Shown: positions 1 to 36,842, counted from the first letter of the stretch. The stretch is DNA of 64,000 nt from Candidatus Latescibacterota bacterium (GCA_965222605.1 OZ244960.1:5120001-5184000), one strand, 5' to 3'. Program-made: numbers and translations. The notes: a model not told the origin generated them from the sequence alone.

Positions 1-2
1 CT

Positions 3-1472
3 CAGGCGGGGTGCTTTATTTCAAGCCCGGGTGCGTGGTGGGTCGATTTCCCCGAATTGAGGGACGATTTCTACAGATACACCGGTGCCGACAACTACGA
101 CGGTCCGGCCGAATACGCTGACCTGAAGCTCAGCTACCATTACGACGGGGACGCGCCTTCTACTTTGTGGAATGACGTTGGTGGACCCTACGTTTCGGCG
201 CGTCACCATTCACTGTTCAAAGGCACGGCGCGAATCGATGGAGAACTGACAGACTTCCAGTACTTTGGGTTTGCCCCTCTGGATTATACCCCACCCTTTA
301 CAAACGATTCGGAAAACTACGTTGCGCCAAAAGTCGCGGATCAGCCGGTGTCGGTAAAGTGGTGGGAAATCTTCAGCAGAAATAACTTCACATACCCGGA
401 TCCCAGTAATGATGGTGATGAGCAACTGTGGAATAAACTCGTCGAAGACCAGAGAATCCAATCCAATCCCACCGACATCGGTGATTACGCCCACAGTTAC
501 ACGTATGGACCATACGATATTGGTCCTGGTGAAAAAGTGAAAATCGTGGCGGTTTTTGCCGGGGGAACAGCTGCCGACGCCAAGGGTACGGGCATCATCG
601 AATGGGCGCAAACGGGCAATCAAGACGAGGTTTCTCTGGGCCGGGAGGCCCTCGTGGATCATGTGCGCCGTGCTCAATTCGCCTACGATAGCGGCTACGA
701 TCTGCCCGACCCGCCTCCGGATGTGCGATTTTCAGTGGGAAATAGCGAACGTGGGCAGGTTCTCCTCACATGGCCAGATAATGCCGATCGCGCGTTGGAT
801 CCTGACTATCGCGAGGCCGATGTAAGAGCCTACCGGGTCTATAGTTCAGGGACCAGGGAAGCGGGGCCTTACAAGTTGCTGAAAGAGATTCCCGTGGGGG
901 ATGCCGCTCATTTGAGTGGCGGCATCTATTCCTTCGAGGATGAGACTTCCGCTCCCGGCTTCAACTACTGGTACTCGGTTCGCACGGTCGATTCTGGGCA
1001 TTCATCCTGGACTAATAACAACGGTACCAAGACGCTTGCCGACCTGCCCGACAAGGTGCGGCAGAATGTTCAGAGTGGCATGGAAAGCGGGCATTCTTCG
1101 CCTGAGCAGCGGATGCAGGTCTTCACCAGTCCCAAGATCCCCGCAACTGCTAACAAAGACAATTTCGACGATGAAATCCTGGTTGTGCCCAATCCCTATC
1201 GGGATGATGGCACACACAGATATCCGGGATCCAGAAAGATTCGATTTACAAATATCCCCAGAAAGGCCCATATCAAGATCTATTCTCCATCTGGAGACCT
1301 GATCTGGACGATCAATCACGATTCGCCCCTGGGAGAGGCAGAATGGAATCAGGCGCCGCGATCCTTCGCGAGACCAGAGGTGCCATCGGGCATCTACTTC
1401 TACTCTGTGGAATCTCTTGTGGAATCTTCAAAAGGACAGATACGATTCGGTTCGTTTGTAATCATCAAATAG
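3..1472 (+). CDS. 5'-truncated secreted protein with FN3-like domain and C-terminal FlgD-Ig/T9SS-type sorting domain
   Basis: Frame is open from position 3 (QAGCFISSPGAWWVDFPELRDDF...). It has an FN3-like segment (PPPDV..VLLTWP..YRVY..F.D.....GFNYWYSVRTVD) and a CTD (VVPNPY..IRFTNIP..IKIYSPSGDLI..W...VPSGIYFYSVES..GSFVIIK). Confidence 0.8.
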   Translation, partial: QAGCFISSPGAWWVDFPELRDDFYRYTGADNYDGPAEYADLKLSYHYDGDAPSTLWNDVGGPYVSARHHSLFKGTARIDGELTDFQYFGFAPLDYTPPFTNDSENYVAPKVADQPVSVKWWEIFSRNNFTYPDPSNDGDEQLWNKLVEDQRIQSNPTDIGDYAHSYTYGPYDIGPGEKVKIVAVFAGGTAADAKGTGIIEWAQTGNQDEVSLGREALVDHVRRAQFAYDSGYDLPDPPPDVRFSVGNSERGQVLLTWPDNADRALDPDYREADVRAYRVYSSGTREAGPYKLLKEIPVGDAAHLSGGIYSFEDETSAPGFNYWYSVRTVDSGHSSWTNNNGTKTLADLPDKVRQNVQSGMESGHSSPEQRMQVFTSPKIPATANKDNFDDEILVVPNPYRDDGTHRYPGSRKIRFTNIPRKAHIKIYSPSGDLIWTINHDSPLGEAEWNQAPRSFARPEVPSGIYFYSVESLVESSKGQIRFGSFVIIK

Positions 1473-1488
1473 TCTAAGGAGCTTTGCT

Positions 1489-2475
1489 ATGATGACCAGG
1501 ATATACGCATCAATCTGCGCATTCGCGATTGCTATTTCGCTCCAATCTCCCGCCTATGGGCAGTTTATAGAGATCGAGGACGAGGACATTTACTCCTCAA
1601 CCGCTGCTTCGCGAATTGGGCTCACGGGGTTCGGGTTTTTGAAGATTTCACAAGGCGCGCGGTCTGCGGGAATGGGGGATGCGTACACGGCCATATCCAA
1701 CGATATCAATGCGGCATTCAAGAACCCTGCCGGTCTGACCCATATGAAACGGATCGAGTACGTGTTCTCTTACAACCGGTGGTTGGTAAACAGCACGGTT
1801 GCCTCCGGCGCTGTTGCGGCGAATACGCCGTATGGCGTGGTGGGCGTCACCTTTATAGGTTTCTACCCTGAGAAGAGCAAGGAAACCACCATACTCCAGC
1901 CGCTCGGAACGGGGGAGATGGTGAATGCTGGGGATGTCGCCATCGGATTTCTTTACGCGAAGAAAATGACCGATAAGCTCTCTTTCGGCGTTCACGGTCG
2001 CTGGATTCAGGAAACCCTGCACGACAAGAATATTGCCAGTTATGATGTCTCTCTCGGCACGCTATTCTACACGGGATTTGGCTCCAGCAGGTTGGCGATG
2101 ACATTGCAGAATTTCGGCAAAGACATAACGCCAGAAGCGGTCACTTTCGCCACGCCAATGGTCTTCAATATCGCCGCTGCTATGGAGGTTTATGGAAAGG
2201 CGGAAGACCCCACCTATCTCACAGCCGCAGTCGATTTCAGCTATGCCACTGATTTTGGTGAGCGGCTACATTTTGGCGGTGAGTTCTGGGTCGCAAGAGT
2301 ACTCGTGCTTCGAGCCGGATACAAGACCAATTACGACATCGAGAGTTATTCACTTGGTGCCGGTGTTCGCGTGAACTATTCGGATGGTAGGCAGGTCTCT
2401 GTCGATTTTGCCTATTCGGCGATTGACGGTGGCTTCGATGCTCCGCTGCGCGTGTCTCTGAGCGGGAGTTTTTAG
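1489..2475 (+). CDS. PorV/PorQ-family (FadL-like) outer-membrane beta-barrel protein
   Basis: AAGGAG RBS, signal peptide, FLKISQGARSAGMGDAYTA..D......NPAGL motif, alternating beta strands and a terminal Phe (SLSGSF). Confidence 0.85.
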   Translation: MMTRIYASICAFAIAISLQSPAYGQFIEIEDEDIYSSTAASRIGLTGFGFLKISQGARSAGMGDAYTAISNDINAAFKNPAGLTHMKRIEYVFSYNRWLVNSTVASGAVAANTPYGVVGVTFIGFYPEKSKETTILQPLGTGEMVNAGDVAIGFLYAKKMTDKLSFGVHGRWIQETLHDKNIASYDVSLGTLFYTGFGSSRLAMTLQNFGKDITPEAVTFATPMVFNIAAAMEVYGKAEDPTYLTAAVDFSYATDFGERLHFGGEFWVARVLVLRAGYKTNYDIESYSLGAGVRVNYSDGRQVSVDFAYSAIDGGFDAPLRVSLSGSF

Positions 2476-2536: not shown

Positions 2537-4525
2537 TTGTCCTCTCTGCAAGATCCCATCGTTAGCCATCCAGTGCCTTCCGCCGCAGAGGAGCGGGGAA
2601 TCACGTTGCGTTCGTTTCTGATTGGGTTGGGTGTGGTCTGTCTGGTCAACCTGTGGGTCACGTGGTCGGATTTAATGATCCATTCCTCAGCCTGGAATCT
2701 GAGCCACTTCCCCATAGTGAATTTCATTCCGTTTGTCATCCTCACAGTCTTATCATCGGTTTCAAACAGGTTGTTTGGTTCGCGCTGGTCTTTTTCATCT
2801 GCCGAACTCGCCACCATTCTGGCCATGGGGCTGGTGGGCAGCGTCGTGCCGACCAACGGATTTATGGGATATGTGATCGGCATTTTGGCCATGCCGTATT
2901 ACCTGGCCACCCCCGAGAATGGTTGGGCGCTCTATTTTCACCCCCACCTTGCCGACTGGATGGCGCCGCGAAATGAAAACGACGCCGTGCGCTACTTTTT
3001 CGAAGGCCTACCCAAAGGTGCGCACATCCCCTGGGAAACCTGGGCAAGCCCGCTTTTCTGGTGGCTCACATTTGCAGCGTCGATCACGCTGATCTCGGCC
3101 TGCACGGTTGTCATTTTGCGCAAGCAATGGACGGAGAACGAACGGCTCGATTATCCCATCATCAGCGTAGGCATCGACATGGCGCTGCGCTCGAATCCCC
3201 GGAACTGGCTGCCGGAATACATGAAAGGCAAGCTGTTCTGGGGTGGTTTTTCGGTCGCCTGCGGAATCGTTTGTTGGAATATTCCCAGTTACTTCGTACC
3301 CGGCCTGCCCGAATTCCCTCTACTTTATAGGTGGTTTACGCTGGCCGCTGGTTTTCCCACAATTGATTTTCATATCAGTTTTTTTGCACTGGCTTTTGCA
3401 TTTTTTGCCAGGCTTGAAGCCCTGTTCAGCGTCTGGTTCTTCTTCCTGATTTTTCTAATCCAGAGCGCGGTATTCAACCGATTCGGATTCACCATCGGCA
3501 CCTCGGGAGATCCCTGGTCTTCCCACAACCCCGCTGTTGGCTGGCAAAGCTGGGGGTCTCTCTGCTTCATCGTGGCCTGGGGGATCTGGGTTGCTCGTCA
3601 TCATCTACGCGACGTGTTTTCCAAGGCCATCTGGGGGGCACCAGGTGAGGGCAGCACTGAAGAGATGATGTCTTACCGGATGGCTCTTACCGGCCTGATC
3701 AGCGGACTGGTTTATGCCATTGGATTTCTGTACTGTGCGGGCATGAGCTATACCATGGCCTTCGCGCTCTTGCTTTCCACGCTCATCGGCTACCTGGGTG
3801 TATCCCGCATCTTAGTGGAAACCGGGTTGCTCTACGTGGTCGTACCGGTAACGGGTCAGTCCTCCACCGTATATTTTCTGGGATCGCGTGGCCTGCCGGA
3901 ATCCTCGATGACAGCCATGGTATTCACCTACATCCTCGTCACGAGGGGCGCCGGTATGTTCATGCCTTCGCTGACCCATCTGGGCAAGCTCGCAGACCGG
4001 ATTCCCCAGATTCGAAAGCGTCTGATCTACGCGCTTGGTGCCTCAATCGCGAGCGGCGTTCTGGTTGCCGCCATTGTAACCCTGTACCTGGGTTACACGA
4101 AGGGGGCATACAACTTCAACGTATGGGTGTTGGGCGGGGGCGGCAGTCAGCGGCCTTTCATCGATACGCTGGTCAAGATGCAGTCGCCATTCACAACAGA
4201 CTGGTATCGCATCTTCTTTTTTTCATTCGGGGCGCTGGTCTCGGCCGTGCTGGTGGCTTTGCGCTACCGCTTTCCCTGGTGGCCCCTTTCTCCTATCGGA
4301 TTTCCTCTGGCCACTTCCTGGCCCATGCGCAGAGTCGGGTTCACCATCTTTCTGGCCTGGTTCATCAAGGCCACCATCATGAAACTGGGAGGTGCCGTGC
4401 TCTATCGCCGGTGCCAGCCCTTTGCAGTCGGGCTTCTGGTCGGTTGGGCAGCCGGAGTCGGCATCTCTTTCGTGGTTGACATCTTCTACTTTCCCGGCAA
4501 CGGACACGGGATTCACTCGTATTGA
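2537..4525 (+). CDS. Multi-pass membrane protein, DUF6785/DUF6784-type putative transporter (copy 1)
   Basis: 662 aa, many hydrophobic helices. Motifs G(I/L)TLRS, ELATI..M, PYY.ATPEN.W, LRKQW...ERL.YP, RI..ETG, RYRFPWWPL.PIGF, K.GG..LYRR.QP. TTG start is uncertain. Confidence 0.75.
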   Translation: MSSLQDPIVSHPVPSAAEERGITLRSFLIGLGVVCLVNLWVTWSDLMIHSSAWNLSHFPIVNFIPFVILTVLSSVSNRLFGSRWSFSSAELATILAMGLVGSVVPTNGFMGYVIGILAMPYYLATPENGWALYFHPHLADWMAPRNENDAVRYFFEGLPKGAHIPWETWASPLFWWLTFAASITLISACTVVILRKQWTENERLDYPIISVGIDMALRSNPRNWLPEYMKGKLFWGGFSVACGIVCWNIPSYFVPGLPEFPLLYRWFTLAAGFPTIDFHISFFALAFAFFARLEALFSVWFFFLIFLIQSAVFNRFGFTIGTSGDPWSSHNPAVGWQSWGSLCFIVAWGIWVARHHLRDVFSKAIWGAPGEGSTEEMMSYRMALTGLISGLVYAIGFLYCAGMSYTMAFALLLSTLIGYLGVSRILVETGLLYVVVPVTGQSSTVYFLGSRGLPESSMTAMVFTYILVTRGAGMFMPSLTHLGKLADRIPQIRKRLIYALGASIASGVLVAAIVTLYLGYTKGAYNFNVWVLGGGGSQRPFIDTLVKMQSPFTTDWYRIFFFSFGALVSAVLVALRYRFPWWPLSPIGFPLATSWPMRRVGFTIFLAWFIKATIMKLGGAVLYRRCQPFAVGLLVGWAAGVGISFVVDIFYFPGNGHGIHSY

Positions 4526-4537
4526 AAGAGAGGCATT

Positions 4538-5905
4538 ATGGCAAATTCAATAGAAATCGGTATCGCGCGTGCCGACATCACCCCTGCGGTGGGCATACCC
4601 ATGGTCGGTTTTGCTGGACGAGGATCTTCGACGCGTGTAAACGACCCGTTGTACGCTACGGCCATGGCTGTTTCCTGTGCGGGGGAGCAAGCCGTATTGA
4701 TCGCTTTGGATCTCCTTCAGTTTAAGGCGGAAACGGTTGCCGAGTTTCGCGCACTCATCCAGGCCGCATCGGGAATCTCCGCTGATCGGATTATCCTGGC
4801 ATGCAGCCACACCCATTACGGGCCTGATATCGATCGCGCAGGTAAGCAAACCTCATCGCCGGGACCGGGTCCAGCCGAAGCCTCTGAGTTGGTCGATGCC
4901 TATCGGATTCATCTCGGATTCAAACTGGCGGGTCTGGTACAGGAGGCACAGCAAAATTTGAAGCCAGCGCGAATGGGTATCGGCTGGGGCAGTTCCGACA
5001 TCGGTATTAACCGCAGGGAGAAGACCCCTGATGGGCGGATTATTCTCGGCAACAACTACGACGGGCCTGTTGACCGCGAGGTCGGCATTGCGCGGATTGA
5101 AGATACAGAGGGAAATCCCATCGCTTGTCTGGTCAATTTTGCGACGCATCCCGTTGCACAGACTTCTCAGCAACGCGCCATTTCCGCCGGGTTTCCCGGA
5201 AAGATGGCCCGCGTGGTAGAGAATCTCACTGGCGCGTATTGTCTTTTTCTACAGGGGGCGGCAGGAAATATCAATCCATCTGCCGGATTCCGGATTCCAG
5301 ATCAGCGGCCCGAAGACCTCCACAAACCGTCGGACAGCCTGGGGATTCGACTGGGCTGCGAAGCGGTACGCGTGTGGGAAACCATCACAGTCGGCGAGTC
5401 CCAGGGCTTGAATATCGCTTCAAAAACCATAAGTCTGCCTCGCTACATGTACGGCGACTTAAAAAGCGCAAAACAGCTCGATGGGGAATTTGCTCATGAG
5501 TTGGAAACGAGAAATCTCTCAGAAGGGCAGCGATATTGGACAGAGCTGAGGCAAAGTCGGGTGCGGGAAGCGATTAGAAGCCATCAGACGGGGGTTCCTC
5601 TCGATCCCGTTGAGGCGGAATTGCAGACATGGCGAATCGGCGATCTCGCCTTTGTGACTGCACCGGCGGAGATTTTTACTGAAAATGGCACGCTTGTGAA
5701 AAATCAATCTTCGTTCGATCACACTTTCTTCGTGGGCTATGCCAATGGCTCCATTGGGTATGTACCTACCGTGGATGCCTACCCCGAGGGGGGGTACGAA
5801 GTCACCCACGCCTGCCAGGTTGACCCCGAGGCGGGCGGTATGATCAACGAGAATTGCCTGGCACTGCTCCGGCAGCATAGCGAAGGAGATTTATATGGCA
5901 AATAG
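4538..5905 (+). CDS. Neutral/alkaline ceramidase-like Zn amidohydrolase (copy 1)
   Basis: G.ARADITP, DPLYA, SHTHYGP, INRR, GPVD, NFATHP, FLQGAAGNINP, PAEIF, GYANG..GY.P...Y..GGYE. Confidence 0.8.
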   Translation: MANSIEIGIARADITPAVGIPMVGFAGRGSSTRVNDPLYATAMAVSCAGEQAVLIALDLLQFKAETVAEFRALIQAASGISADRIILACSHTHYGPDIDRAGKQTSSPGPGPAEASELVDAYRIHLGFKLAGLVQEAQQNLKPARMGIGWGSSDIGINRREKTPDGRIILGNNYDGPVDREVGIARIEDTEGNPIACLVNFATHPVAQTSQQRAISAGFPGKMARVVENLTGAYCLFLQGAAGNINPSAGFRIPDQRPEDLHKPSDSLGIRLGCEAVRVWETITVGESQGLNIASKTISLPRYMYGDLKSAKQLDGEFAHELETRNLSEGQRYWTELRQSRVREAIRSHQTGVPLDPVEAELQTWRIGDLAFVTAPAEIFTENGTLVKNQSSFDHTFFVGYANGSIGYVPTVDAYPEGGYEVTHACQVDPEAGGMINENCLALLRQHSEGDLYGK

Positions 5906-7367
5906 ACCCAATATCCTGGTGATCATGTCCGATCAGCACAGCAAATTCCACATCGGATGTTATGGCGATGAAGTGGTTCGAACCCCGCATATGGACCGGC
6001 TTGCCGCCGAAGGCATACGGTTCAACAACGCCTATTGTGCAGCGCCGCTTTGCGTACCCAGCCGGATGGCTTTTATGACATCCAGAACGCCCACCGCGAA
6101 TCGCGTCTGGACAAATAGTCACATCCTCTCTTCCGCCATTCCCACCTGGGCACATGGCATGGGCGCAGCCGGCTATGAAACTGCTCTGATCGGCCGGATG
6201 CACTTTATTGGATCGGATCAGCGGCACGGATTCGAACGACGGCCGATCGGCGAACACGGCGCGCACCATCCGGGGGCACGCCGGAAAGGCGCCCCTCTAT
6301 TCCGCAAGATGCCCCTGGGAGTATCTGGGCAGAGCCGCGTAAGTGTAGAATACGCCGGATACGGGTTGTGTACCTATCAGGCCTATGATGACATGGTCGT
6401 TGCTTCTGCCCTCGATTATCTGGATGAAAAGGCTCAAGATAGGGGGGATCGCCCGTTTGCCGCCGTGGCTGGTTTTGTTTTGCCACACTGCCCTTATATC
6501 GCGGCCACAAAGGAACTTTTTGAATATTATTACGACCGGGTAGATGTTCCACAGCCAACGCCTGAAGAGGCACAGAGAGCACCTGCGGCCATTCGCAAGC
6601 TGAAACGCCTGCGCGATCTGGATCATCCGCTTCCCGAAGAACGCATTCGCGTGGCCCGGGCAGCCTATTTTGCCATGTGTGAGTATTTTGACAGCATCGT
6701 CGGCCAGATGCTCCAGAAGCTGGATGAGACGGGGCTGGCCGAAAACACGCTGGTCATCTACTGCTCTGACCACGGCGAAATGGCCGGAGAACACGGACTG
6801 TGGTCCAAAAGCAATTACTACGAAGCCTCTGTTTCCGTGCCCCTCATTGCCCGTTTGCCCGGGGTCATCCCAATGGGTGGAATCAGCGATAGCATCTGCA
6901 ACCTCATGGATATTGGACCGACCCTGATCGAGATGGCTGGCGCTACTCCCATGCCTGCTACCGATGGACGTTCGCTGTGGCCCCAGATGTGCGGAGAGAA
7001 CGATCCGAACTGGGTCGATGAAACCTTCAGCGAACATCTCTGGGAAGCCAACGAAGTGCCTTCGAGAATGATTCGAAGCGGTCCGTGGAAGCTTTACAAG
7101 TACAACGAACCCACCCCTCCAGCGCTCTTTAACCTGAAAGAAGACCCCGGAGAACTCAATGACCTGGGTCTGGACACGCGGCACCAGGATGTCCGAGAGA
7201 AGCTCTTGAAACGCCTCTACGAAGATTGGGATCCCGCAGGTATTATCAATGAAACAGCTATTCTGGACCGGGATTATCGTGTCATTTCGGCATGGGGCCA
7301 GGCCGTCCAGCCCATACACGAAGACACTGTAGCCGTGCCGGATGTGGAAGATATAGAACTTCGATAG
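5895..7367 (+). CDS. Cys-type formylglycine-dependent sulfatase (S1, choline-sulfatase-like)
   Basis: PNILVIMSDQH, TPHMDRLA, CVPSR catalytic motif, G(R)MHF, PH.PY, SDHGEMAGEHGLW.K. Start overlaps the upstream stop. Confidence 0.9.
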   Translation: MANRPNILVIMSDQHSKFHIGCYGDEVVRTPHMDRLAAEGIRFNNAYCAAPLCVPSRMAFMTSRTPTANRVWTNSHILSSAIPTWAHGMGAAGYETALIGRMHFIGSDQRHGFERRPIGEHGAHHPGARRKGAPLFRKMPLGVSGQSRVSVEYAGYGLCTYQAYDDMVVASALDYLDEKAQDRGDRPFAAVAGFVLPHCPYIAATKELFEYYYDRVDVPQPTPEEAQRAPAAIRKLKRLRDLDHPLPEERIRVARAAYFAMCEYFDSIVGQMLQKLDETGLAENTLVIYCSDHGEMAGEHGLWSKSNYYEASVSVPLIARLPGVIPMGGISDSICNLMDIGPTLIEMAGATPMPATDGRSLWPQMCGENDPNWVDETFSEHLWEANEVPSRMIRSGPWKLYKYNEPTPPALFNLKEDPGELNDLGLDTRHQDVREKLLKRLYEDWDPAGIINETAILDRDYRVISAWGQAVQPIHEDTVAVPDVEDIELR

Positions 7368-7395
7368 ATGGTGAATTCAAATTAAGTGTGATCAC

Positions 7396-9384
7396 GTGTC
7401 CCAACCATTAGAAACTCGACGCGACCGACAAGATCAGGTGCCCGACTCTTCTCGATATAGGGGGTTGACCCTTCGCTCGGTACTCATTGGGCTTTGCGTT
7501 GCTGGTCTGGCCAACTTCTGGGTGACCTGGTCCGACTACGTCATACATTCCTCGACATGGAACCTGAGCCATTTTCCGATGGTCAACTTCATCCTCTTTC
7601 TATTGTTGACCGTCTTTTCCGCTGTGGCCGGACGAGTGCTTGGCCCCCGGTTTGCGCTTGCACCTTCGGAATTGGCAACAATAATGAGCATGGGGCTGGT
7701 CGGCAGCGTCGTGCCCACCAACGGATTTATCGGATATGTTCTCGGCATTCTGGCGACGCCGTATTATCTGGCGACGCCGGAAAACGGATGGGGAATCTAT
7801 TACCATCCCTACATTCCCGATTGGATGGTGCCATCGAACTCGGGTGAATCCATGCGGTATCTCTTTGAGGGGTTGCCCGGTGGCCTGCAGATTCCATGGC
7901 AGGTCTGGATTGGTCCTCTTCTCTGGTGGCTGAGTTTTGCCGGGGGTATTGCCCTGGTCTCGGCCTGTACTGTCGTATGCTTGAGAAAACAATGGACTGA
8001 TTACGAACGCCTCGATTATCCCATCATCGGGGTGGGAACCGATATGGCAATGAGGTCGCGGGCTGTGGGTTGGTTGCCGGAATATATGCACGGCCGCATT
8101 TTCTGGGGTGGATTCGCGGTTTCTTGCGGCATCGTTTGCTGGAATATTCCAGGCTACTTCATGCCCGGTATACCTGCTTTCCCGCTCTTGCCTCAGTGGT
8201 TCACCTTTGCAACCGGTTTTCCGACGATTGATTTCCACATCAGCTTTTTTGCCTTTGCCTTCGCCTTCTTCGTCAATCTCGAGGCCCTGTTCAGCGCCTG
8301 GTTCTTTTTCTTGCTGTTCATTTTACAAAGCGGCGTCTTCAACCGGTTTGGCTACACCATAGGCACTCGTGGTGATCCCTGGTCCTCTCTAAATCCTGCA
8401 GTGGGTTGGCAAAGCTGGGGGGCGATGTGTTTTATAGTCTTCTGGGGGCTCTGGGTTGGGCGAAATCACATCAAGCAAGTCTTCTACCAGGCCTTCTGTT
8501 CCGCCCGGGCTGGTCGTTCAGAAGAAATGATGTCCTACCGCATAGCTATTTTCGGGTTGGTCTTCGGTCTCGTCTATGTGATCGGCTTTCTGCACCATGC
8601 GGGAATGAGCTATAAGATGGCTGTTATCCTGATTTGCTGTACTCTCGTCGGATACCTTGGTGTTGCCCGTATCGTAGCCGAGACAGGCCTTCTTTATGTC
8701 GTCGTACCGGTGACGGGCCAGTCGGCTACCATATACCTTCTGGGGTCATATGGTATGCCTCCGGAAAGCATGACGTCCATGGTCTTCACCTATATGCTCG
8801 TTACCCGGGGCGCAGCTATGTTTATGCCCTCGTTCACGCAAATGGGCAAACTCGCGGATCGAATTCCCCAGATTCGACGAGGACTGATGCCGGCACTGGG
8901 TGGTGCAATCGTCGCCGGGGTCGTGATTTCCATTGTGGTTACCTTCTATCTGGGATACAGCCAGGGCGCCTACAACTTCAACACCTGGGTATTCGGTCTG
9001 GGAAGTCAGGTTCCCTTTATCGACACACTCACGAAAATCCGAACGCCCTTCTCCACGGACTGGAATCGCCTTTTTTTCTTTGGAATCGGAGTGGCTGTCT
9101 CTGCCTTGTTGACCTTTCTGCGTTACAGGTTTCCATGGTGGCCCCTTTCTCCGATCGGCTTTCCGCTTTCCACCTCCTGGCCAATGCGGAGGATCGGGTT
9201 CACAATTTTTCTGGCCTGGTTGGTAAAGGCGCTGGTTATGAAGATCGGAGGCGTTGTCCTCTACAGGCGATTTCAGCCCTTTGCACTGGGCCTGGTTGTC
9301 GGTTGGGCCGTCGGTGTGGGAATATCTTTTGTGGTAGATATCATCTGGTTTCCCGGTCAAGGACACAGGATTCACTGGTATTGA
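7396..9384 (+). CDS. Multi-pass membrane protein, DUF6785/DUF6784-type putative transporter (copy 2)
   Basis: 662 aa paralog of 2537..4525 with long identical stretches (MGLVGSVVPTNGF, FPTIDFHISFFA, ETGLLYVVVPVTGQS, RYRFPWWPLSPIGFPL). Confidence 0.75.
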   Translation: MSQPLETRRDRQDQVPDSSRYRGLTLRSVLIGLCVAGLANFWVTWSDYVIHSSTWNLSHFPMVNFILFLLLTVFSAVAGRVLGPRFALAPSELATIMSMGLVGSVVPTNGFIGYVLGILATPYYLATPENGWGIYYHPYIPDWMVPSNSGESMRYLFEGLPGGLQIPWQVWIGPLLWWLSFAGGIALVSACTVVCLRKQWTDYERLDYPIIGVGTDMAMRSRAVGWLPEYMHGRIFWGGFAVSCGIVCWNIPGYFMPGIPAFPLLPQWFTFATGFPTIDFHISFFAFAFAFFVNLEALFSAWFFFLLFILQSGVFNRFGYTIGTRGDPWSSLNPAVGWQSWGAMCFIVFWGLWVGRNHIKQVFYQAFCSARAGRSEEMMSYRIAIFGLVFGLVYVIGFLHHAGMSYKMAVILICCTLVGYLGVARIVAETGLLYVVVPVTGQSATIYLLGSYGMPPESMTSMVFTYMLVTRGAAMFMPSFTQMGKLADRIPQIRRGLMPALGGAIVAGVVISIVVTFYLGYSQGAYNFNTWVFGLGSQVPFIDTLTKIRTPFSTDWNRLFFFGIGVAVSALLTFLRYRFPWWPLSPIGFPLSTSWPMRRIGFTIFLAWLVKALVMKIGGVVLYRRFQPFALGLVVGWAVGVGISFVVDIIWFPGQGHRIHWY

Positions 9385-12430: not shown

Positions 12431-12481
12431 TTCGCTCTGTGCCGCATCTTGCCCAGTGGTTGTCAGACTGTGGAGAAAACT

Positions 12482-17904: not shown

Positions 17905-17968
17905 CCCGGACGCCTCCGGGACAATGCTCAGGGCACAGGGGAGAGCGAGACTTCTGGAATACACTGAT

Positions 17969-30635: not shown

Positions 30636-32744
30636 TCAGGCATGTCGAAGAATGATGTTCTGGAACTCGTCCATAGATGCCTGCCAACCTGGCGGCACGA
30701 CGGTGGTCGAGTCCAATTCTTCGATGATCAAGGGTCCTCCGGTGGGCGCGGCACGGAGGGATTGCCGTGAACAAACCGCGGTTTCCAGGTCACCGTCGGC
30801 CGGCCCGAAAAAGGCTGTTCTGCAGCCGTTTGGTACGACGTTCTCTTCCCGGTGATCCGCACGGAACAGGTCCCGCGGCTCATCCGCTCCAAACTCCCGA
30901 ATGACGCTCGAGACAATCCTGAGGTTGACCAGTTCGATGGGGTCATGGTTTGCCCGGTGGCCGTAGGTCGTGAGGTGCTCCTGCTCGAATACCTCCGCCA
31001 ATGTCGTTAGTTCCCCGGGTCCAAGCGGAACGCCGGGTGCAGGCACGGTCAGCTCGGTGGCCTGGTTGACATAGCGCAAATCGGCAAGCCGCCGTACTCG
31101 AATCTGTTCGGGGCGATATCCTTCGGCAACGAGCGTCTCCACCGTCTGCGACTCGAGTTCGCTATAGAGCCGGTTCAAGTCTTCGGGCCTGACCTCTTCC
31201 AGTCTGCGACACCAGGTTCGGACGGATTCATGCTCGGGTTCGGACACAAGCAGCCCGAAGGCACTGAACAGGCCGGGATGCGGCGGAATAATAACTTCTC
31301 GCATGCCCAGGGCCTGTGCGAGGGTTGTGGCTACGAGGGGCCCGCACCCACCGAATGCCAACAGGGCGGCCTCACGCGGATCTCTTCCGCGATACGTAGA
31401 AACGGACTTCACGGCCCGGATCATGGTCGCACAGGCCAGTGTAAAAGCCCCATAGGCGGCCTTCATCAGGCATTGTTGCATCGGTCTGGCCACTTTCTTC
31501 TCGAATATCCTCCTCGCTTGCGCTGTCGCCAGTTTCATCTTCCCGCCAAGCAGAGCATCGGGACTGAGATAGCCGAGCAGGACGGCGGCGTCCGTGAAGG
31601 TCGGCTCCTCGCCTCCAAGCCCGTAGCAGACGGGCCCGGGGTCTGCGCCGGCACTTTCCGGCCCGACCCGGAGCCGGCCGTGACGGTCAACCGAAACGAT
31701 ACTCCCGCCGCCCGCTCCGATCTCCGCGATATCGATGACCGGCAGCTTGAGCGCATATCCTGCGCCTTTGACAAGGCGGCTGCTCAGGTTGATACCGGCG
31801 CCGACTTCATATTCGGAAGTCCGCGCAACGGTTCCGTTCTCAACTATGGCGGTCTTGGCGGTTGTGCCGCCCATGTCCAGGGTAATCACATTTGTGTAGC
31901 CTGCTTTGCCGGCCATCCAGGCTGCGGCCATCACCCCGGCCGCCGGTCCGGATTCAATCAGGTGGGCGGGCTTCTTCTGCGCCGAGTCGGCTGTCATCAC
32001 CCCACCCCCTGAATGCAGAACCTCCAGCGGCGCGCGAATGCCCATCGACTGGAGTTGTTCGCTCAGGGAATTCAGATATCGCTGCATGACCGGCCCGAGG
32101 TAGGCATTAATCACTGTCGTGCTCGTACGCTCATATTCGCGGATTTCAGGAAGGACCTCGCAGGAGGTGGTGACAAATATATCGGGAAGCGACTCCCGGG
32201 CTGCAGCGACCGTCCGGAGTTCGTGCTCCGGGTTGGCGTAGGAATGGAGCAGACAGATCGCCAGTGCTTCGATCTCCTGCTGCTGCACGGTGTTCAGGAC
32301 ATTTTCCAGGGACACCTGCTGGAGAGGTTCCCGCACCCGGCCGCGAGCGTCCATTCGTTCATCCAATTCGAATCGCAGGTGGCGTGGAACAAGAGGACTG
32401 GGCGGGTTGTAAAAAAGGTTGTAAAGCTCGGGGATCCGAATCCGTCGCATCTCGAGAACGTCTCGAAATCCCTTTGTCGTGATCAGGGCCGTCCGGGCTC
32501 CCTTGCCTTCCAGGATCGCATTTGTGGCGACAGTCGTGGCATGTGCGATTCTCTCAATGGAGACCTCTGAAATCCGGCGATCTTCAATCAATCCGCGAAG
32601 CCCCTGAATGATACCCCGGGCGTAGTCCTCCGGCGTGGAAAGGACCTTCCGGACAGCGAGCGAACCGTCACTGCCCAAGACAGCAATGTCGGTAAATGTT
32701 CCGCCGATATCGATGCCGATGTGAGATGATGTCGGTGATATCAA
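30636..32744 (-). CDS. hyuA: Hydantoinase A/oxoprolinase-family ATP-binding subunit (pair 3)
   Basis: GIDIGGTFTD, HATTVATNA, EYERTSTT..NAY, ESGPAAG, DMGGTTAK, EIGAGGGS, SAGADPGP.CY. Confidence 0.9.
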   Translation of the reverse strand: MISPTSSHIGIDIGGTFTDIAVLGSDGSLAVRKVLSTPEDYARGIIQGLRGLIEDRRISEVSIERIAHATTVATNAILEGKGARTALITTKGFRDVLEMRRIRIPELYNLFYNPPSPLVPRHLRFELDERMDARGRVREPLQQVSLENVLNTVQQQEIEALAICLLHSYANPEHELRTVAAARESLPDIFVTTSCEVLPEIREYERTSTTVINAYLGPVMQRYLNSLSEQLQSMGIRAPLEVLHSGGGVMTADSAQKKPAHLIESGPAAGVMAAAWMAGKAGYTNVITLDMGGTTAKTAIVENGTVARTSEYEVGAGINLSSRLVKGAGYALKLPVIDIAEIGAGGGSIVSVDRHGRLRVGPESAGADPGPVCYGLGGEEPTFTDAAVLLGYLSPDALLGGKMKLATAQARRIFEKKVARPMQQCLMKAAYGAFTLACATMIRAVKSVSTYRGRDPREAALLAFGGCGPLVATTLAQALGMREVIIPPHPGLFSAFGLLVSEPEHESVRTWCRRLEEVRPEDLNRLYSELESQTVETLVAEGYRPEQIRVRRLADLRYVNQATELTVPAPGVPLGPGELTTLAEVFEQEHLTTYGHRANHDPIELVNLRIVSSVIREFGADEPRDLFRADHREENVVPNGCRTAFFGPADGDLETAVCSRQSLRAAPTGGPLIIEELDSTTVVPPGWQASMDEFQNIILRHA

Positions 32745-32824: not shown

Positions 32825-34570
32825 TCAACCCTCATCGACGACCGGCAGCACGACATGCGACGGGTACTGAGCCGTATGCAGCACGGTCTGTTGGGCCGTC
32901 TGCATCCTGGTGCCGGTCGCCACATCTTCCCCGGTGTTCAAATTGCGGCTGAAGCGCGGGAAGTTGCTGCTGCTGATATCGAGCCGCAAGCGGTGCCCGG
33001 CCAAAAACGCATGGCACGCCGGACAGAGTTCGATCTTGAATTCGTCGACCTCGCCAGGCTCCAAAAGTTCCGTCTCAGTCAAGCTTTTGCGATAGCGCCC
33101 CCGCAGTATGCCCTCGCAGAGTACCAGCGAACGCCCTTCCCGATCGACATCGGTCAACCGCGCCGTAAAGTCCGTGTCCAGCGCGGACGATGCCGCATAG
33201 AGCACCACCTGAACTGGACCGATGACGATGAGATTCTCGGCCAATACAGGCGAAGTATAGACCAGCACATCGGCGCGAGCTTCAATCGACCGCTGGTCGA
33301 CCGGACCGGCCAGGAGCGGATCTTCGGCGTTCTGGCTCATCATCTGCACCGACAGGTTTCCGCCGCGGGTCGGCACCGGATCCTGCGGGTCGTACGCAAA
33401 GCGGTCGGCTGGCTCATTTCCGGGCGGCTTTTGGTCCAGGCCGCCGTCGTCGGGATCGGACTGCGCCCGGCCGTTGCTATGCATATAGTACGGCTCGGTG
33501 CGCGTGCCCGGTAGCGGCCACTGGTCGGCGCAACGCCAGCGATTGACCCCCGTCACAAAGATCCGGATCGGCTGTTCGTCAGCCATCGCACCCTCGATCC
33601 CCCTGAGTTGCCAGTCGAAAAAGCGTTGCTCTTCCTTGCGGATATCCAAAAGCGACTCCGGGCCAAAATTCATATCGCCCATCCGCGTGCTATCCGGCAC
33701 TTCGTGCGTCCACGGACCGACCAGGATCCGTTGCTGGGTGCGCGCTTGCGGCGTAGCACCGTGTTGGCTCATCCCGTTGAAGCCGCGGAAACCGGCCGCC
33801 GCATAGGGATCGAAAAAACCGCACTGTTGGAAAGTAGGTACGGTTATCTGGTGATAGCGGCCCATCGTGTTGCAGCGCTCCCAGTAAGCGTCGTAGGTCG
33901 GGTGCTCCAGCCACTCGCGCCAATAGGGCACCTTGCGTCCAATAGCCCATTCGTCGAGTTCGATCAGTGGCAGGTAGCTCCAGAAGGCGCGGTTCTGAAA
34001 GATCTTGGCCGCCTGGCTTCCGACGACCGTGGCCAAATTGGTCTCCCAAATAACCGCCGCCCCCAGCGAGAGCATCAGTTGAAACGCCCCGCCCACGTAA
34101 TGGCAGTCGCTGAAGAAATCGTCGCAGACGACGTGCGGGGCCATACATGTCAGGTGTGGGCTTTGCAACGGTGCCATCAACCACTGGGTCAGCGCCCCGT
34201 AACTGCGGCCCCAGGTAGCGATCTTGCCGTTGCACCACGCCTGTGCAGCGACGCATTCCAAGGTGTCGTAACCATCCTCGATATCGCGAAAATAGGCGTG
34301 GAACACGCCTTCGGATTCAAAGCGCCCCCGACAGTCTTCGACCACGAATGCGTATCCGCGCTCCGCCCACCAGACCCCGAGTTCGATAAACACGTCGCGA
34401 CCGCTTTCATAGGGCGTTCGCGTCACAATGGTCGGAAAGGGACCTTGCGCATAGCGCGGCAGGTAGACGTCTGCCGAGAGCCGCACGCCATCGCGCATCG
34501 GCAACCGCAACCCGTGCAGGAGGCGAACCTCGTGCAAAGCAGAGTGGTTTTGCTCATGCGTTGCTGTCAT
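32825..34570 (-). CDS. CocE/NonD-family serine hydrolase (copy 2)
   Basis: MRDGVRLSADVY.P, RTPY, D.RGRFESEG, DGYDT, GRSY.A nucleophile elbow, GPWTH, YDP..PVPT.GG, DTDFTARL, GHRLRLDISSSNFP. GGAG RBS. Confidence 0.9.
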   Translation of the reverse strand: MTATHEQNHSALHEVRLLHGLRLPMRDGVRLSADVYLPRYAQGPFPTIVTRTPYESGRDVFIELGVWWAERGYAFVVEDCRGRFESEGVFHAYFRDIEDGYDTLECVAAQAWCNGKIATWGRSYGALTQWLMAPLQSPHLTCMAPHVVCDDFFSDCHYVGGAFQLMLSLGAAVIWETNLATVVGSQAAKIFQNRAFWSYLPLIELDEWAIGRKVPYWREWLEHPTYDAYWERCNTMGRYHQITVPTFQQCGFFDPYAAAGFRGFNGMSQHGATPQARTQQRILVGPWTHEVPDSTRMGDMNFGPESLLDIRKEEQRFFDWQLRGIEGAMADEQPIRIFVTGVNRWRCADQWPLPGTRTEPYYMHSNGRAQSDPDDGGLDQKPPGNEPADRFAYDPQDPVPTRGGNLSVQMMSQNAEDPLLAGPVDQRSIEARADVLVYTSPVLAENLIVIGPVQVVLYAASSALDTDFTARLTDVDREGRSLVLCEGILRGRYRKSLTETELLEPGEVDEFKIELCPACHAFLAGHRLRLDISSSNFPRFSRNLNTGEDVATGTRMQTAQQTVLHTAQYPSHVVLPVVDEG

Positions 34571-34649
34571 TAACTCGACTCCTTCGCGCCGTCAGTAATG
34601 TTCTCGGACATCATGTTCCTATCGGCCCTTACCCTTCAGGTGATTGTCT

Positions 34650-35434
34650 TCACCACCGGATGGACACGGGCGTCAGCAGCCCGGCGGCTTGGCGTTCCCG
34701 TAGGGCCGTCGCGGCTTTCCCTTCCAGGAAGAGCTCAGGCTGGTTCAAACCCAATAGGTTCGCCGCGCTACTCGTGACCTCTAACTCGATCTCGTTCGGC
34801 CCCGGCAGCACGAGATCCGTGATGTCGAACGTGTAGGGGCGCCAGAGGCGCGGTGCGAGACGATGCCCGTTGACAATCAGTGCTGCCACTGCGGCGACCT
34901 CCTCTGCATGAGCCCAGACGCGGCCCCCCAGTGGCGGCAACTCGCATCGCCAGCGGTACCGGGCCGTGCCTGTGTAGTTTGGAAAGCCCGCCTCAGCCCA
35001 TGACCCGGGGCTGAGGCGCCGTCGTGTCTTGACCAGGGCACAGGGCGCTCGGACTCGCCGTAGAAGCCGGCCAGGCAGTACGACACCTCATCAGTGAAGA
35101 GGCCGGCAATCGTCTTGCCCAGCTCTCCGGGGAAACGGCTGCGGTAGGCTTCATGAGTGAGCTCAATGAATGCCCGTACGGTCTCCGGGTCGGAAACATC
35201 GCCGTAGCCCTCTTGCCCCCAGCAGAAGGGCGACCACTGCGCAAAAGGGCACACCCCATTCTGTGGCGTCTCGTGGAAGACGGTCGCTTTGCCCGATTCG
35301 TCCACGCATTGCCATGCAGCGTGATCGTCCTGGGGTGGCACACCAAGGGGGGCGTTCCAGAACCACATGATGTGCGGACGGTAGGCGTCCCCAGGTGTGG
35401 CGAACTGCTTGATGAAGTCGTTGCTCAGAGGCAT
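34650..35434 (-). pseudogene. Internally deleted, frameshifted remnant of a large glycoside hydrolase (GH106/alpha-L-rhamnosidase-like)
   Basis: N-terminal F..P...YRP...WFWN, then D..DP..V..FI..THE.Y...F..ELGKTI.G.FTDE..PWS. Another frame gives GSW.EAGFPNYTGT.RY and V..LIVNG.....LWRPY.FDIT.....G.NEIELEVTSS.AN..GLL.PV. All of this fits in ~785 bp. Confidence 0.75.
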
Positions 35435-35444
35435 CTATCACCTC

Positions 35445-36842
35445 TCAGTCATTTTCGAATAATTCCGTCAGTATTGCCAACGTCGCTTCGACGATGCGCT
35501 CCAACGAGTCCGGCGCAAACTTGGCCCAGTAGGTGCAGTGGGCGTTGGTTTCGTGCCCTGGTCTTGCGCAGGCGTCGCTCGTGGGGAGGTAGCCGACGTA
35601 TTGCGTGGACATGTGAGCGATGAAGGTGAGCTTCGCAGGTGACCTGGTCTTAATCTCCAATTGACCTTCCACGAACGGCTCGCCGGGCAGAGAAATGATA
35701 GCCATGTCGCCGATGCGGAAGACCTGGATTTCATACATGAATTGCGGCTCACGATTGCGGCAAAGCTCGATGCTTTTCGTCGACGCGGCATGAAACCATG
35801 TGGGGTCCACTTCGCCGTTGTCTTGTAGTTTCAGCGTTGGGTGTTCGGCCAGAATGAGGTTGACCTGGTCTTGCCGATCGTCAGGAATATCGCGATACGC
35901 CAGAGGGATTTTTTCGAAACGCCAATCGATCGAATCAACGTCTGCAAAGTTCAGCGATTCGATGACGGCTTGTGTGGTGTCCGCCAATTCATTCCCCATG
36001 CGCACGTGGTCAGGCGTGAAGTTGGGCGTAAAGGCAGGCCATGGATTGACGTTGCCACAACATCCGTTGATGACCAGGGGCGAGCACATCAGACTGTTTT
36101 GGTCTTTGACTTTTGCGCTCCACGCGCCGGGCCAGTCGGCGCAGACGGTATTTTTTTCCCGAGCAAACACGTTGACCGGATGACAGGTAAAGTGCAGCAG
36201 CATCGCGGCTGTGTCACCCGCGGCCGATTGTGCGCACCACACACCCACCTGTGGGTCGGCAGGGCCTTCCAGGTAAACGATGTCCGTCGGCCCCAGAGGT
36301 TTGGCGTCGCTGGTGAAGGGCCACGGCATGCTGATATTGCCGCCGCGCATCACGCCACGCCGATTAAAGGCCAGGTCGTCGCGAACGGCATGCCCCCTGG
36401 CGACCTGCACTGGCGTTAACGCATCGTTCGCTTCCTGGATCGCGCGGGTTGCGCCAGCGACGGCCTGCTTCGTATACGCGGCTTCACTACCGGTGATGTG
36501 CTCCTGATCAGCTCTTAGGTCAAGCGGGAAATCCGGGTCGAGCATGAGGGCGCCGCAACTCGGCGCCGAGTGATTCTGCAACGAATGCACCATCACGGCG
36601 TGGGGTTCAAAGCCCAGCGCGACAGCGCTTTCTCGAATGGCCCGGGTGTAGGGCAAAGTAACCGCCAACGTGTCTAGCGTGATGATACACAATTTCGCGT
36701 CTTTGGCCTGGGCGACCATCACTTTGGCGTAAAGTGGATCGAGGATTTTTTGAGCAGGGCGGTGTTCTCCCATGCCGCTTCCGGCCAGGTGCGTGCCCAA
36801 AGGCGGTGTGATGTCGATGGCGGCTTGGCCTATTTGAAGCAT
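35445..36842 (-). CDS. Neutral/alkaline ceramidase-like amidohydrolase (copy 4)
   Basis: Start reassigned to ATG 36842 (MLQIGQAAIDITP); the upstream extension in the ORF track is AT-rich and not family-like. Motifs DPLYAK, QNHSAP, AVRDDLAFNRRGV, HFTCHPVNVFA, NGCCGN.NPWP, LPGEPFVEGQLEIK. Close paralog of copy 3. Confidence 0.8.
   Translation of the reverse strand: MLQIGQAAIDITPPLGTHLAGSGMGEHRPAQKILDPLYAKVMVAQAKDAKLCIITLDTLAVTLPYTRAIRESAVALGFEPHAVMVHSLQNHSAPSCGALMLDPDFPLDLRADQEHITGSEAAYTKQAVAGATRAIQEANDALTPVQVARGHAVRDDLAFNRRGVMRGGNISMPWPFTSDAKPLGPTDIVYLEGPADPQVGVWCAQSAAGDTAAMLLHFTCHPVNVFAREKNTVCADWPGAWSAKVKDQNSLMCSPLVINGCCGNVNPWPAFTPNFTPDHVRMGNELADTTQAVIESLNFADVDSIDWRFEKIPLAYRDIPDDRQDQVNLILAEHPTLKLQDNGEVDPTWFHAASTKSIELCRNREPQFMYEIQVFRIGDMAIISLPGEPFVEGQLEIKTRSPAKLTFIAHMSTQYVGYLPTSDACARPGHETNAHCTYWAKFAPDSLERIVEATLAILTELFEND

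Follow-up and report, generated by a model that had tools for sequence, protein, structure and literature searches.

What would a bacterium do with about twenty enzymes for the cleavage of amides, lactams and esters, encoded in two converging arrays? The question is raised by a stretch of 64,000 nt of Candidatus Latescibacterota DNA (hereafter the window), of which positions 1-36842 form the island studied here: judged from their translations, its products look like about twenty such enzymes, cytoplasmic by appearance. Latescibacterota are widespread and uncultured, and published readings of their genomes stress polysaccharide degradation. We propose, with a probability of about 0.55, that the island is a lineage-specific catabolic cluster. 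It would be a utilisation locus headed by a TonB-dependent receptor, with a cargo disassembling imported nitrogen-rich, partly sulfated small molecules, and a second, separately derived minus-strand arm would add lactam-opening and amino-acid-processing capacity. This reading is carried by the concentration of enzyme families that are rare in related sequence and by the position of the plus-strand arm behind an uptake-type gene module that recurs in related genomes. The enzyme families themselves are ordinary; the module ahead of the plus arm is, by the literature consulted, undescribed.

The listing of open reading frames (ORFs) separates two arms. Thirteen co-directional genes on the plus strand end at 21219, and the minus-strand arm, nine genes plus one gene remnant, spans 36842 down to 21298. 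Intergenic gaps measure -23 to 126 nt, the sole exception being a gap of 306 nt occupied by the remnant. Families were assigned by Pfam, NCBIfam and BLAST, with 23 genes scanned. A preliminary description of this DNA had reported the families, their counts and a convergence at 21219/21298; all families and counts were borne out by these searches, and the ORF coordinates and strands agree with the convergence. Two genes missing from its list were found at the 5′ end, 3-1472 (a secreted protein) and 1489-2475 (a PorV/PorQ-family barrel). The features are as follows.

3..1472, plus strand: g01, C-terminal 489 aa of a secreted protein of ~752 aa; its 5′ part lies outside the window
1489..2475, plus strand: g02, PorV/PorQ-family outer-membrane beta-barrel (NF033709, 143 bits against a cut-off of 90)
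2537..4525, plus strand: DUF6785/DUF6784 polytopic membrane protein a, proposed inner-membrane permease (Pfam, 350 and 80 bits)
4538..5905, plus strand: ceramidase-like metallo-amidase CERa (PF04734, 44.4 bits)
5895..7367, plus strand: Cys-type sulfatase, choline-sulfatase-like (Pfam Sulfatase, 162 bits; TIGR03417, 343 bits)
7396..9384, plus strand: DUF6785/DUF6784 membrane protein b, 69% identical to a
9485..10954, plus strand: DUF3604/CehA-McbA-type PHP metallohydrolase a (Pfam, NCBIfam)
11000..12430, plus strand: DUF3604/CehA-McbA-type PHP metallohydrolase b (NF038032, 96.9 bits against a cut-off of 80)
12449..13978, plus strand: M81/MlrC-like metallopeptidase (PF07364, 273 bits; MlrC_C, 145 bits)
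14061..15791, plus strand: HyuB1, hydantoinase B/oxoprolinase (PF02538, 585 bits)
15817..17904, plus strand: HyuA1, hydantoinase A/oxoprolinase (three Pfam domains)
17924..19897, plus strand: CocE/NonD family hydrolase 1 (TIGR00976, 370 bits)
19918..21219, plus strand: ceramidase-like CERb, final gene of the plus arm (PF04734, 46.5 bits)
21298..22854, minus strand: HyuB2, final gene of the minus arm (PF02538, 478 bits)
22851..24953, minus strand: HyuA2 (Pfam)
24931..26010, minus strand: threonine-aldolase-like enzyme of the GntG family, dependent on pyridoxal phosphate (PLP) (PF01212, 272 bits; NF041359, 324 against a cut-off of 230)
26127..27548, minus strand: ceramidase-like CERc (Pfam, 20.3 bits, below cut-off; BLASTP paralogy)
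27675..30620, minus strand: HyuB3 fused to a class I/II aminotransferase, 981 aa (PF02538 at residues 7-526, PF00155 at residues 637-970)
30636..32744, minus strand: HyuA3 (Pfam)
32825..34570, minus strand: CocE/NonD family hydrolase 2 (TIGR00976, 428 bits)
34587..34623, minus strand: copy of a 37-nt repeat, rearrangement scar (repeat search; partner at 25983-26019)
34650..35434, minus strand: GH2-like jelly-roll pseudogene, two out-of-frame remnants (ORFs 34877-35434 and 34650-35087)
35445..36842, minus strand: ceramidase-like CERd, first gene of the minus arm, start set at an internal Met (Pfam, 23.4 bits, below cut-off)

The three HyuA/HyuB pairs matched all their Pfam domains at full length, the main A and B domains scoring 279-585 bits. 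Paralogues within the island are 24-46% identical by BLASTP, except for the DUF6785 pair (69%). A recent inverted duplication of the arms is ruled out by this range, since the paralogues are old, and by the differing gene order. As the preliminary description had stated, positions 1-36842 hold no regulator gene by Pfam and NCBIfam scans and no intact glycoside hydrolase, with only the GH2-like remnant present; no glycoside hydrolase, polysaccharide lyase or carbohydrate esterase family was found among the 23 genes scanned. Similarly, Pfam scans of the island gave no sugar kinase, isomerase or Gfo/Idh/MocA gene, and no riboswitch or other Rfam family and no tRNA was detected across the whole window.

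We then compared the island with related sequence. Scanning of GTDB species genomes with a DUF6785 alignment gave 76 loci, nearly all from Candidatus Latescibacterota, plus some from metagenome-assembled genomes labelled Gemmatimonadota. The 36.8 kb of the island carry three HyuA, three HyuB, four ceramidase-like, two CocE, two DUF3604 genes and one MlrC gene; of 72 non-orthologous DUF6785 loci (~1.38 Mb, BLASTP E<1e-8), all selected for DUF6785 and thus not a random genome sample, the numbers with a member of each family are 0, 0, 1, 2, 2 and 4 loci, respectively. The four MlrC-like comparison loci share one arrangement, with the MlrC-like gene on the opposite strand. So dense a grouping of these families within 36.8 kb clearly exceeds background. 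This bears directly on the explanation that the island is a mosaic, in which unrelated small operons for different substrates have accreted, each DUF6785 protein serves its own handful of enzymes encoded behind it, the lactams opened differ between HyuA/HyuB pairs, and neither substrate nor regulation is common. The age of the paralogues, apart from the DUF6785 pair, is what such accretion would leave. However, HyuA, HyuB, CocE and ceramidase-like genes occur together in both arms, with gaps of -23 to 126 nt there should be few transcription units, and these families are very rare in the ~1.38 Mb of related sequence, so that without a functional link their density in the island has no easy explanation. 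We regard the mosaic as rather unlikely, and return to it below with the evidence on gene-content change.

The catabolic cluster that we propose depends on what stands upstream of the enzymes. Four of the loci, L001-L004, align with the window up to position ~14.5 kb: L003 (OZ253501.1) is 96.8% identical over 14.5 kb, and L001, L002 and L004 are 92-94% identical. In all four the order g01, g02, DUF6785a, ceramidase-like, sulfatase, DUF6785b, DUF3604b, MlrC-like, HyuB1, HyuA1 is kept, and reading frames are intact across the stretch from g01 to HyuA1. As a separate observation, the nearest relative has its PorV/PorQ-family gene broken across two frames (L003 8954-9939), by a frameshift or an assembly error; the same gene (g02) is intact in the window, L001, L002 and L004. 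The segment 9391-10986, with DUF3604a, is present in the window and L003 and cleanly missing from L001, L002 and L004, which is gene-content flux inside the locus.

The window opens inside g01, and the array in L001-L004 starts ~4.6 kb earlier. Its 5′ part consists of a 236-aa outer-membrane beta-barrel, a 1017-aa TonB-dependent receptor, g01 and g02. From the outer-membrane barrel through the last plus-strand gene, the array totals 17 co-directional genes over ~25.8 kb, in the order outer-membrane barrel, receptor, g01, PorV/PorQ-family barrel, DUF6785, enzymes, second DUF6785, more enzymes. The receptor (L003 3611-6664, outside the window) carries CarboxypepD_reg plus Plug domains at its N-terminus, typical of SusC/RagA proteins. 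Further upstream, L002 has a sigma-54 activator and a receiver protein, neither of which is found in L003, and L003 has a galactonate-dehydratase-like gene.

All ORFs of the 76 loci were clustered for a census of this module, with DUF6785 dereplicated at >=70% identity. In 14 of 35 groups, DUF6785 is preceded on its own strand by g01 and/or a PorV/PorQ-like gene; several of the other groups are short of upstream sequence. The arrangement is directional: the loci with a given gene upstream of DUF6785 number 34 for PorV/PorQ-like genes, 25 for g01, 20 for the receptor and 14 for the outer-membrane barrel, against 0, 0, 4 and 0 loci with that gene downstream. The distance from the barrel gene to DUF6785 varies from 24 nt to 9.4 kb; therefore enzymes have been inserted both before and after the proposed permease gene. 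Thus the module of outer-membrane barrel, receptor, g01, PorV/PorQ-like barrel and DUF6785 recurs with other cargos.

As a lead only, strict sigma-54 promoter motifs (TGGCAC-N5-TTGC) numbered 11 in the 76 loci and 0 in the window. At L001 1090, L002 2314, L061 16654, L063 18724, L073 19915 and L074 19900 such a site precedes a small gene by 11-141 nt. This small gene stands, in L001 and L002, shortly upstream of the outer-membrane barrel and receptor (in L002 it encodes the receiver protein), and in L061, L063 and L074 it directly precedes the TonB-dependent receptor gene.

The commonest cargo of DUF6785 loci is FG-GAP/ASPIC-UnbV proteins (78 copies in 30 loci), often with TPR repeats (e.g. 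L009 17554-19842). Other cargo includes Gfo/Idh/MocA, heparinase II/III-like, xylose-isomerase-like and 3-keto-disaccharide-hydrolase-like genes, as well as FGE, PhyH, M20, M14, creatininase, an Ntn acyltransferase-like protein and aminotransferases; no classical glycoside hydrolase family was found among the cargo representatives scanned. In two loci (L054 8370-13203 and L070 7260-13255) a gamma-glutamyltranspeptidase, DUF6785 and a class III aminotransferase stand in a row, an association that hints at a DUF6785 subgroup handling gamma-glutamyl compounds. These two loci, together with the M20, M14, creatininase and Ntn acyltransferase-like cargo elsewhere, show DUF6785 in the company of enzymes for peptides and amino compounds, which counts in favour of the proposed catabolic cluster.

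Full-length g01, with a signal peptide, is encoded in L003 at 6679-8937. It comprises an N-terminal domain without known family, an FN3-like domain and a C-terminus resembling the C-terminal sorting domain (CTD) of type IX secretion (T9SS). Neither g01 nor 36 homologous clusters have a Pfam domain, and a profile of 31 members matched in the PDB the FN3-like chain 3mpc alone (E 0.0015). Its last ~100 residues gave weak matches to CHU_C (E 8e-4, 20 bits against 27) and to the PorZ C-terminus (E 5e-6, 25 bits). The family is large: of 1.84 billion, 830 representatives match at E<=1e-30 and 4474 at <=1e-10. Its Atlas neighbours at 0.97-0.99 belong to Gemmatimonadota, Ignavibacteriota and Bacteroidota, and one neighbour cluster carries Por_Secre_tail in 17% of its members. 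The adjacent g02, with a signal peptide visible in its translation, matches PorV in the PDB (6h3i, E 0.0067) and scores over the PorV/PorQ family cut-off and under the PorV and PorQ equivalog cut-offs.

By analogy, g02 is proposed as the cognate anchor of g01. In the parts of the literature consulted, CTD proteins are retained by cognate PorV-like barrels: PorZ retains its sorting domain and remains on the PorQ barrel, and type B CTD cargo binds PorP/SprF-like barrels (PMC10202324, PMC9143113). The present pair is similar to these in that the gene for a protein with a putative CTD adjoins that for a PorV-like barrel, which would retain it; unlike them it is multi-copy and stands behind a TonB-dependent receptor in nutrient-type loci. 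A tblastn search of plasmids with g01 gave a single match, on plasmid pRMAR01 of cultured Rhodothermus marinus DSM 4252 (L083, locus 3401-15880). The co-directional order there, by NCBI annotation, is FG-GAP protein, TonB-dependent receptor, hypothetical (g01-like), PorV/PorQ family protein, peptidoglycan-recognition protein and serine hydrolase; the receptor and barrel match those of Latescibacterota at E 5e-62 and 6e-22. The FG-GAP type of protein thus also stands ahead of the Rhodothermus triad.

The two DUF6785+DUF6784 proteins of the window, 662 aa each, show 13-14 hydrophobic segments, with 14 in protein a, and from its genomic context we infer that DUF6785 transports the substrate. It is like the OPT family in size and in its many hydrophobic segments, and a gamma-glutamyltranspeptidase adjoins it in two loci; unlike that family, it matches neither the OPT Pfam model nor any NCBIfam transporter model. 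Other pointers to OPT are one source's OPT/YSL name for the homologue P0112 and, as a lead only, Atlas feature neighbours called peptide or OPT transporters, with scores of 0.77-0.79 derived from a stored homologue and not from the window protein. No DUF6785 relative was found in the plasmid collection, and no literature mentioning DUF6785 was found. Of the "two transporters" of the preliminary description, the two membrane proteins are thus present, and their transport role would follow from context.

The enzymes behind this module all appear cytoplasmic, as judged from their translations. In most of them the catalytic domain begins at residues 1-16. Its start is at residues 27-43 in both CocE/NonD hydrolases, and >100 aa precede it in each DUF3604 protein. 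None of the enzyme translations shows an N-terminal signal peptide, and no hydrophobic segment was found in the six enzymes scanned. The catalytic activities given below are those predicted from family and structure matches.

The sulfatase carries CVPSR, the Cys-type CxPxR motif, and an SGSH_C domain by Pfam. In the PDB it is matched best by choline sulfatases (6fny, 1e-68), with chains that bear carbohydrate-sulfatase names at 1e-41 or weaker, and it scores 343 bits with TIGR03417, under the equivalog cut-off of 433. This proximity to choline sulfatases fits a non-sugar substrate.

Among the four ceramidase-like proteins, CERa and CERb exceed the PF04734 cut-off of 32.1 (44.4 and 46.5 bits) and CERc and CERd fall below it (20.3 and 23.4). 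All four are nevertheless mutual BLASTP matches (E 4e-24 to 1e-147), CERc matching CERa at 1e-32 and CERd at 1e-147 (46% identity). The alignment of CERa with Pseudomonas neutral ceramidase (PDB 2zws, E 5e-9) is confined to the catalytic domain and brings the HxH, His, Glu and Tyr positions into register. His93, His204, Glu378 and Tyr408 are invariant in the four paralogues plus the homologue of locus L072; we take these positions to be the zinc-site residues of published structures. The likeness to neutral ceramidases (2zws, 4wgk) thus lies in a homologous catalytic N-terminal domain and in the conservation there of His, His, Glu and Tyr positions. In contrast to them, the window proteins end after that domain (433-473 aa), with no C-terminal Pfam domain and no visible signal peptide, and their homologues stand in sugar or peptide clusters rather than lipid clusters.

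The HyuA/HyuB pairs resemble N-methylhydantoinase, 5-oxoprolinase and caprolactamase, with full-length matches to both subunit families in adjacent genes. HyuA1 matches N-methylhydantoinase best (7hk5, 1e-156), then 6yra (1e-134), and the three pairs score 175-614 bits against the caprolactamase equivalogs, under the cut-off of 1000. Acetone carboxylases require a gamma subunit, which none of the window pairs has. HyuA2 shares 4 nt with HyuB2 and 23 nt with the aldolase gene, overlaps that imply coupled expression of aldolase, HyuA2 and HyuB2.

HyuB3 differs from the known enzymes by its fusion to a class I/II aminotransferase, in one continuous in-frame ORF. The architecture was found in two other protein clusters only, P0121 (96% identity) and P0122 (50%, from another lineage). 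The single ORF and the 50%-identical example in another lineage show that the fusion is real and rare. The aminotransferase part is GntC-like by NCBIfam (288 bits, below the cut-off of 415). Since class I aminotransferases act on alpha-amino acids, the fusion suggests that HyuA3/HyuB3 may open a lactam with an alpha-amino ring nitrogen, as in 5-oxoproline.

The MlrC-like protein scores 163.5 bits with the microcystinase model NF041767, far under its cut-off of 999; hence it is a member of the wider M81 family rather than a microcystinase. Its PDB matches are 3iuu (1e-55) and 7ylq (1e-44). Both CocE/NonD proteins (370 and 428 bits) exceed the TIGR00976 cut-off of 66.3. DUF3604 a and b are 36% identical, and sequence and profile searches gave no PDB match for b.

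The names of the two PLP enzymes raise another explanation, that the island is a biosynthetic cluster in which GntC-like and GntG-like enzymes plus ATP-dependent HyuA/HyuB build an unusual amino-acid-derived metabolite. Their best NCBIfam names indeed come from guanitoxin biosynthesis, GntG above its cut-off and GntC-like at 288 against 415. Yet hydrolases dominate the island, no non-ribosomal peptide synthetase, polyketide synthase, tailoring oxygenase or exporter is present, and the plus arm stands behind an uptake-type receptor module. This explanation is hardly credible.

Several results weigh against the proposed catabolic cluster. Over 20-39.7 kb, scans for promoters and terminators did not outperform shuffled sequence. 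The receptor scores 65.5 bits with the SusC/RagA model TIGR04056, at its N-terminus only, against a cut-off of 368, and the sorting domain of g01 stays below every curated cut-off. For DUF6785, Pfam at E<=10 with five family members gave DUF models only and no OPT match, NCBIfam with 30 members gave no transporter-family match (four chance-level hits, E 0.035-0.57), and sequence and profile searches gave no PDB match. Of the ceramidase-like paralogues, CERa alone has the first His of the HxH motif, the three others having Gln, unlike neutral ceramidase. The likeness to a polysaccharide utilisation locus (PUL) drawn by the preliminary description is weakened on other grounds: compared with PULs of Bacteroidota, the cargo lacks carbohydrate-active enzymes (CAZymes) and is cytoplasmic by appearance where PUL enzymes are at the surface or periplasmic, and no linked regulator (hybrid two-component system, SusR, or extracytoplasmic-function sigma/anti-sigma pair) lies in 1-36842.

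The minus-strand arm also stands apart, and its composition is another point against the catabolic cluster. Its GC content is 0.599, against 0.552 for the plus arm and 0.483 for the rest of the window, and 4-kb windows of four loci of the same genome range over 0.49-0.59, so that the minus arm reaches or passes their upper end. Its tetranucleotide correlation with the plus arm is only 0.75, compared with 0.82-0.91 between the plus arm and same-genome loci. It also contains no transporter gene. The 37-nt repeat (34587-34623 and 25983-26019, 95% identical) comprises the ribosome-binding region plus the first codons of the aldolase gene; its copy at 34587-34623 sits just upstream of CocE2, beside the GH2-like remnant. 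One of the two pieces of that remnant matches Glyco_hydro_2_N2, a galactose-binding-like family (E 0.0017, 18.9 bits, cut-off 27); the first piece has no Pfam family, and the 185-aa remnant no PDB match. A search for flanking repeats gave no mobile-element ends around the arm. We conclude that the minus arm is probably a separately acquired or reshuffled segment.

These same steps would be expected of an assembly chimera, joined where the arms meet or where the minus arm meets the following DNA, which would mean that the 37-kb island is not one piece. GC moves from 0.552 to 0.599 to 0.483 at ~21.2 and 36.9 kb, the tetranucleotide correlation of the minus arm with the rest is lower, and, as a further point against the catabolic cluster, the synteny comparison with other assemblies ends at window position ~14.5 kb. 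However, four assemblies confirm the plus arm, the two junctions fall within short, ordinary intergenic stretches without a run of N, four rare families are common to both arms, and the copy of the fused HyuB-aminotransferase gene in P0121 comes from another data set, indicating, at 96% identity, that close relatives carry the fused gene. We therefore hold a chimera to be very improbable.

Co-occurrence in other genomes, on which the preliminary description relied as a check, did not hold in the loci and plasmid contexts compared, and this is a further point against the proposal. HyuA/HyuB occur in 0 of the 72 other DUF6785 loci, and a second family of the enzyme set in 0 of 6 plasmid contexts seeded on ceramidase-like or CocE genes. 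As the enzyme set does not recur, the combination is lineage-specific and not a conserved system. Two of the plasmid contexts tell in the same adverse direction: the ceramidase-like homologue of a Nitratireductor plasmid lies beside SIS, amidohydrolase and sugar ABC genes, and that of a Haladaptatus plasmid beside Gfo/Idh/MocA and heparinase II/III genes. A third homologue, on an Agrobacterium plasmid, is beside a prolyl oligopeptidase. CocE homologues of two haloarchaeal plasmids lie amid nucleobase transporters and xanthine dehydrogenase, and that of a Microvirga plasmid in a context without annotation and with no other family of the set. The absence of recurrence, the wide variation of the cargo behind DUF6785, the coming and going of DUF3604a among close relatives, and the scars and different composition of the minus arm are what the mosaic explanation has in its favour, to be set against the clustering described above.

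The sugar-type neighbours of the ceramidase-like homologues suggest another substrate class, namely sulfated, N-acylated amino-sugar or glycosaminoglycan-like fragments, in which case the ceramidase-like proteins would be N-deacylases, and the sulfatase a sugar sulfatase or an N-sulfatase. The heparinase II/III, Gfo/Idh/MocA, xylose-isomerase-like and 3-keto-disaccharide-hydrolase-like genes in other DUF6785 loci agree with this, as do the SGSH_C domain of the sulfatase, the galactonate-dehydratase-like gene upstream in L003 and the GH2-like remnant of the minus arm. An intact glycoside hydrolase is nevertheless missing from positions 1-36842, as are genes of the sugar kinase, isomerase and Gfo/Idh/MocA types, and the sulfatase is far closer to choline sulfatases than to chains named as carbohydrate sulfatases. 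To our knowledge, glycan catabolism does not usually involve HyuA/HyuB pairs, an M81 peptidase or CocE/NonD hydrolases. A sugar-derived substrate thus seems improbable. The earlier claim of a non-sugar substrate is favoured by the sulfatase and opposed by the sugar-type clusters around ceramidase-like homologues elsewhere.

The catabolic cluster that we propose invites comparison with the SusC/SusD PULs of Bacteroidota. It is like them in that a TonB-dependent receptor with CarboxypepD_reg plus Plug domains heads the array, followed by a gene for a presumed surface protein and a variable cargo, and in that the same marker genes occur many times per genome with different cargos. It is unlike them in that no SusD follows the receptor, g01 matching neither SusD nor any other Pfam family; in that the surface protein is an apparent type IX substrate paired with its own PorV/PorQ-like barrel; and in that a dedicated DUF6785 membrane protein belongs to the locus. 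The label "PUL-like" is therefore apt for the plus arm, where the outer-membrane barrel, receptor, g01 and PorV/PorQ-like barrel precede DUF6785 and the enzymes; it fails as regards SusD, CAZymes, a regulator and surface or periplasmic enzymes. Likewise, the idea of an uptake-plus-disassembly line agrees with a dense, hydrolase-dominated cluster and with a plus arm tied to uptake genes, and does not extend to the transporter-less minus arm.

A possible scheme can be drawn from these elements. g01 would be exported by the type IX system, held on the neighbouring PorV/PorQ-like barrel at the cell surface, and would capture substrate for the TonB-dependent receptor. DUF6785 would move the substrate across the inner membrane. 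In the cytoplasm, the choline-sulfatase-like enzyme would strip sulfate esters; ceramidase-fold zinc amidases, CehA-type PHP hydrolases, the M81 peptidase and CocE/NonD proteins would cut amide, carbamate and ester bonds; and ATP-dependent HyuA/HyuB would open cyclic amides. The minus arm would supply two extra HyuA/HyuB pairs, together with PLP enzymes to act on the amino acids that ring opening sets free. The observations establish the gene content and order, the paralogy, the conservation of the plus arm in four assemblies, and the recurrence and direction of the uptake module; that g01 is anchored at the surface, that DUF6785 transports, that the enzymes have the activities named and that the substrate is a nitrogen-rich small molecule are the presumed parts of this scheme.

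Several genes of the window beyond the island were observed. A sulfatase, the second without a signal peptide, stands with an EamA transporter at 39734-41920 (plus strand). An Amidohydro_1 protein at 49476-50645 (plus) is 44% identical to the Nitratireductor amidohydrolase (L077 7850-8995) encoded directly upstream of the ceramidase-like gene there. An ExbB-type gene with small membrane-protein neighbours lies at 52503-55020 (plus), and an FGE-type sulfatase-maturing enzyme at 60888-61667 (minus); TonB-dependent uptake and Cys-type sulfatases would depend on components of this kind. Two genes of low GC content against a background of ~0.5, a methyltransferase at 45409-46071 (minus, 0.365) and an AAA_21/AAA_15 ATPase of the AbiEii/OLD-like kind at 55630-56898 (minus, 0.374), are probably foreign insertions. 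Over ~46500-55000 the GC skew is strongly positive (0.13-0.39 in most 500-nt windows) across genes of both strands.

In a wider sense, the island may represent an undescribed class of substrate-utilisation locus, present in Latescibacterota and, to judge from one Rhodothermus plasmid, in other lineages of the Fibrobacterota-Chlorobiota-Bacteroidota (FCB) group, in which a type IX-secreted g01 on a PorV/PorQ-like barrel would replace SusD and DUF6785 would import. The window would then hold a lactam/amide/sulfate-ester variant, a nitrogen-compound rather than a polysaccharide locus. This wider claim is tentative, possible rather than probable. The 2015 Latescibacteria genome paper, in the part consulted, mentions TonB only for vitamin B12 and iron (PMC4454575). 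No description of a receptor/CTD-protein/PorV-like triad was apparent in the parts consulted of the literature on TonB-dependent uptake, PorV and T9SS; and no literature was found linking Latescibacterota with type IX secretion or with hydantoinase.

If the proposal is true, the receptor, g01, the PorV/PorQ-like barrel and DUF6785 would be a marker set for utilisation loci outside Bacteroidota, and two large families without known function, DUF6785 and g01, would gain a testable role. The Rhodothermus marinus plasmid copy would offer a cultured organism in which the outer-membrane triad is open to genetic testing. For Latescibacterota, uptake plus ATP-driven ring opening of nitrogen-rich small molecules would then be a niche.

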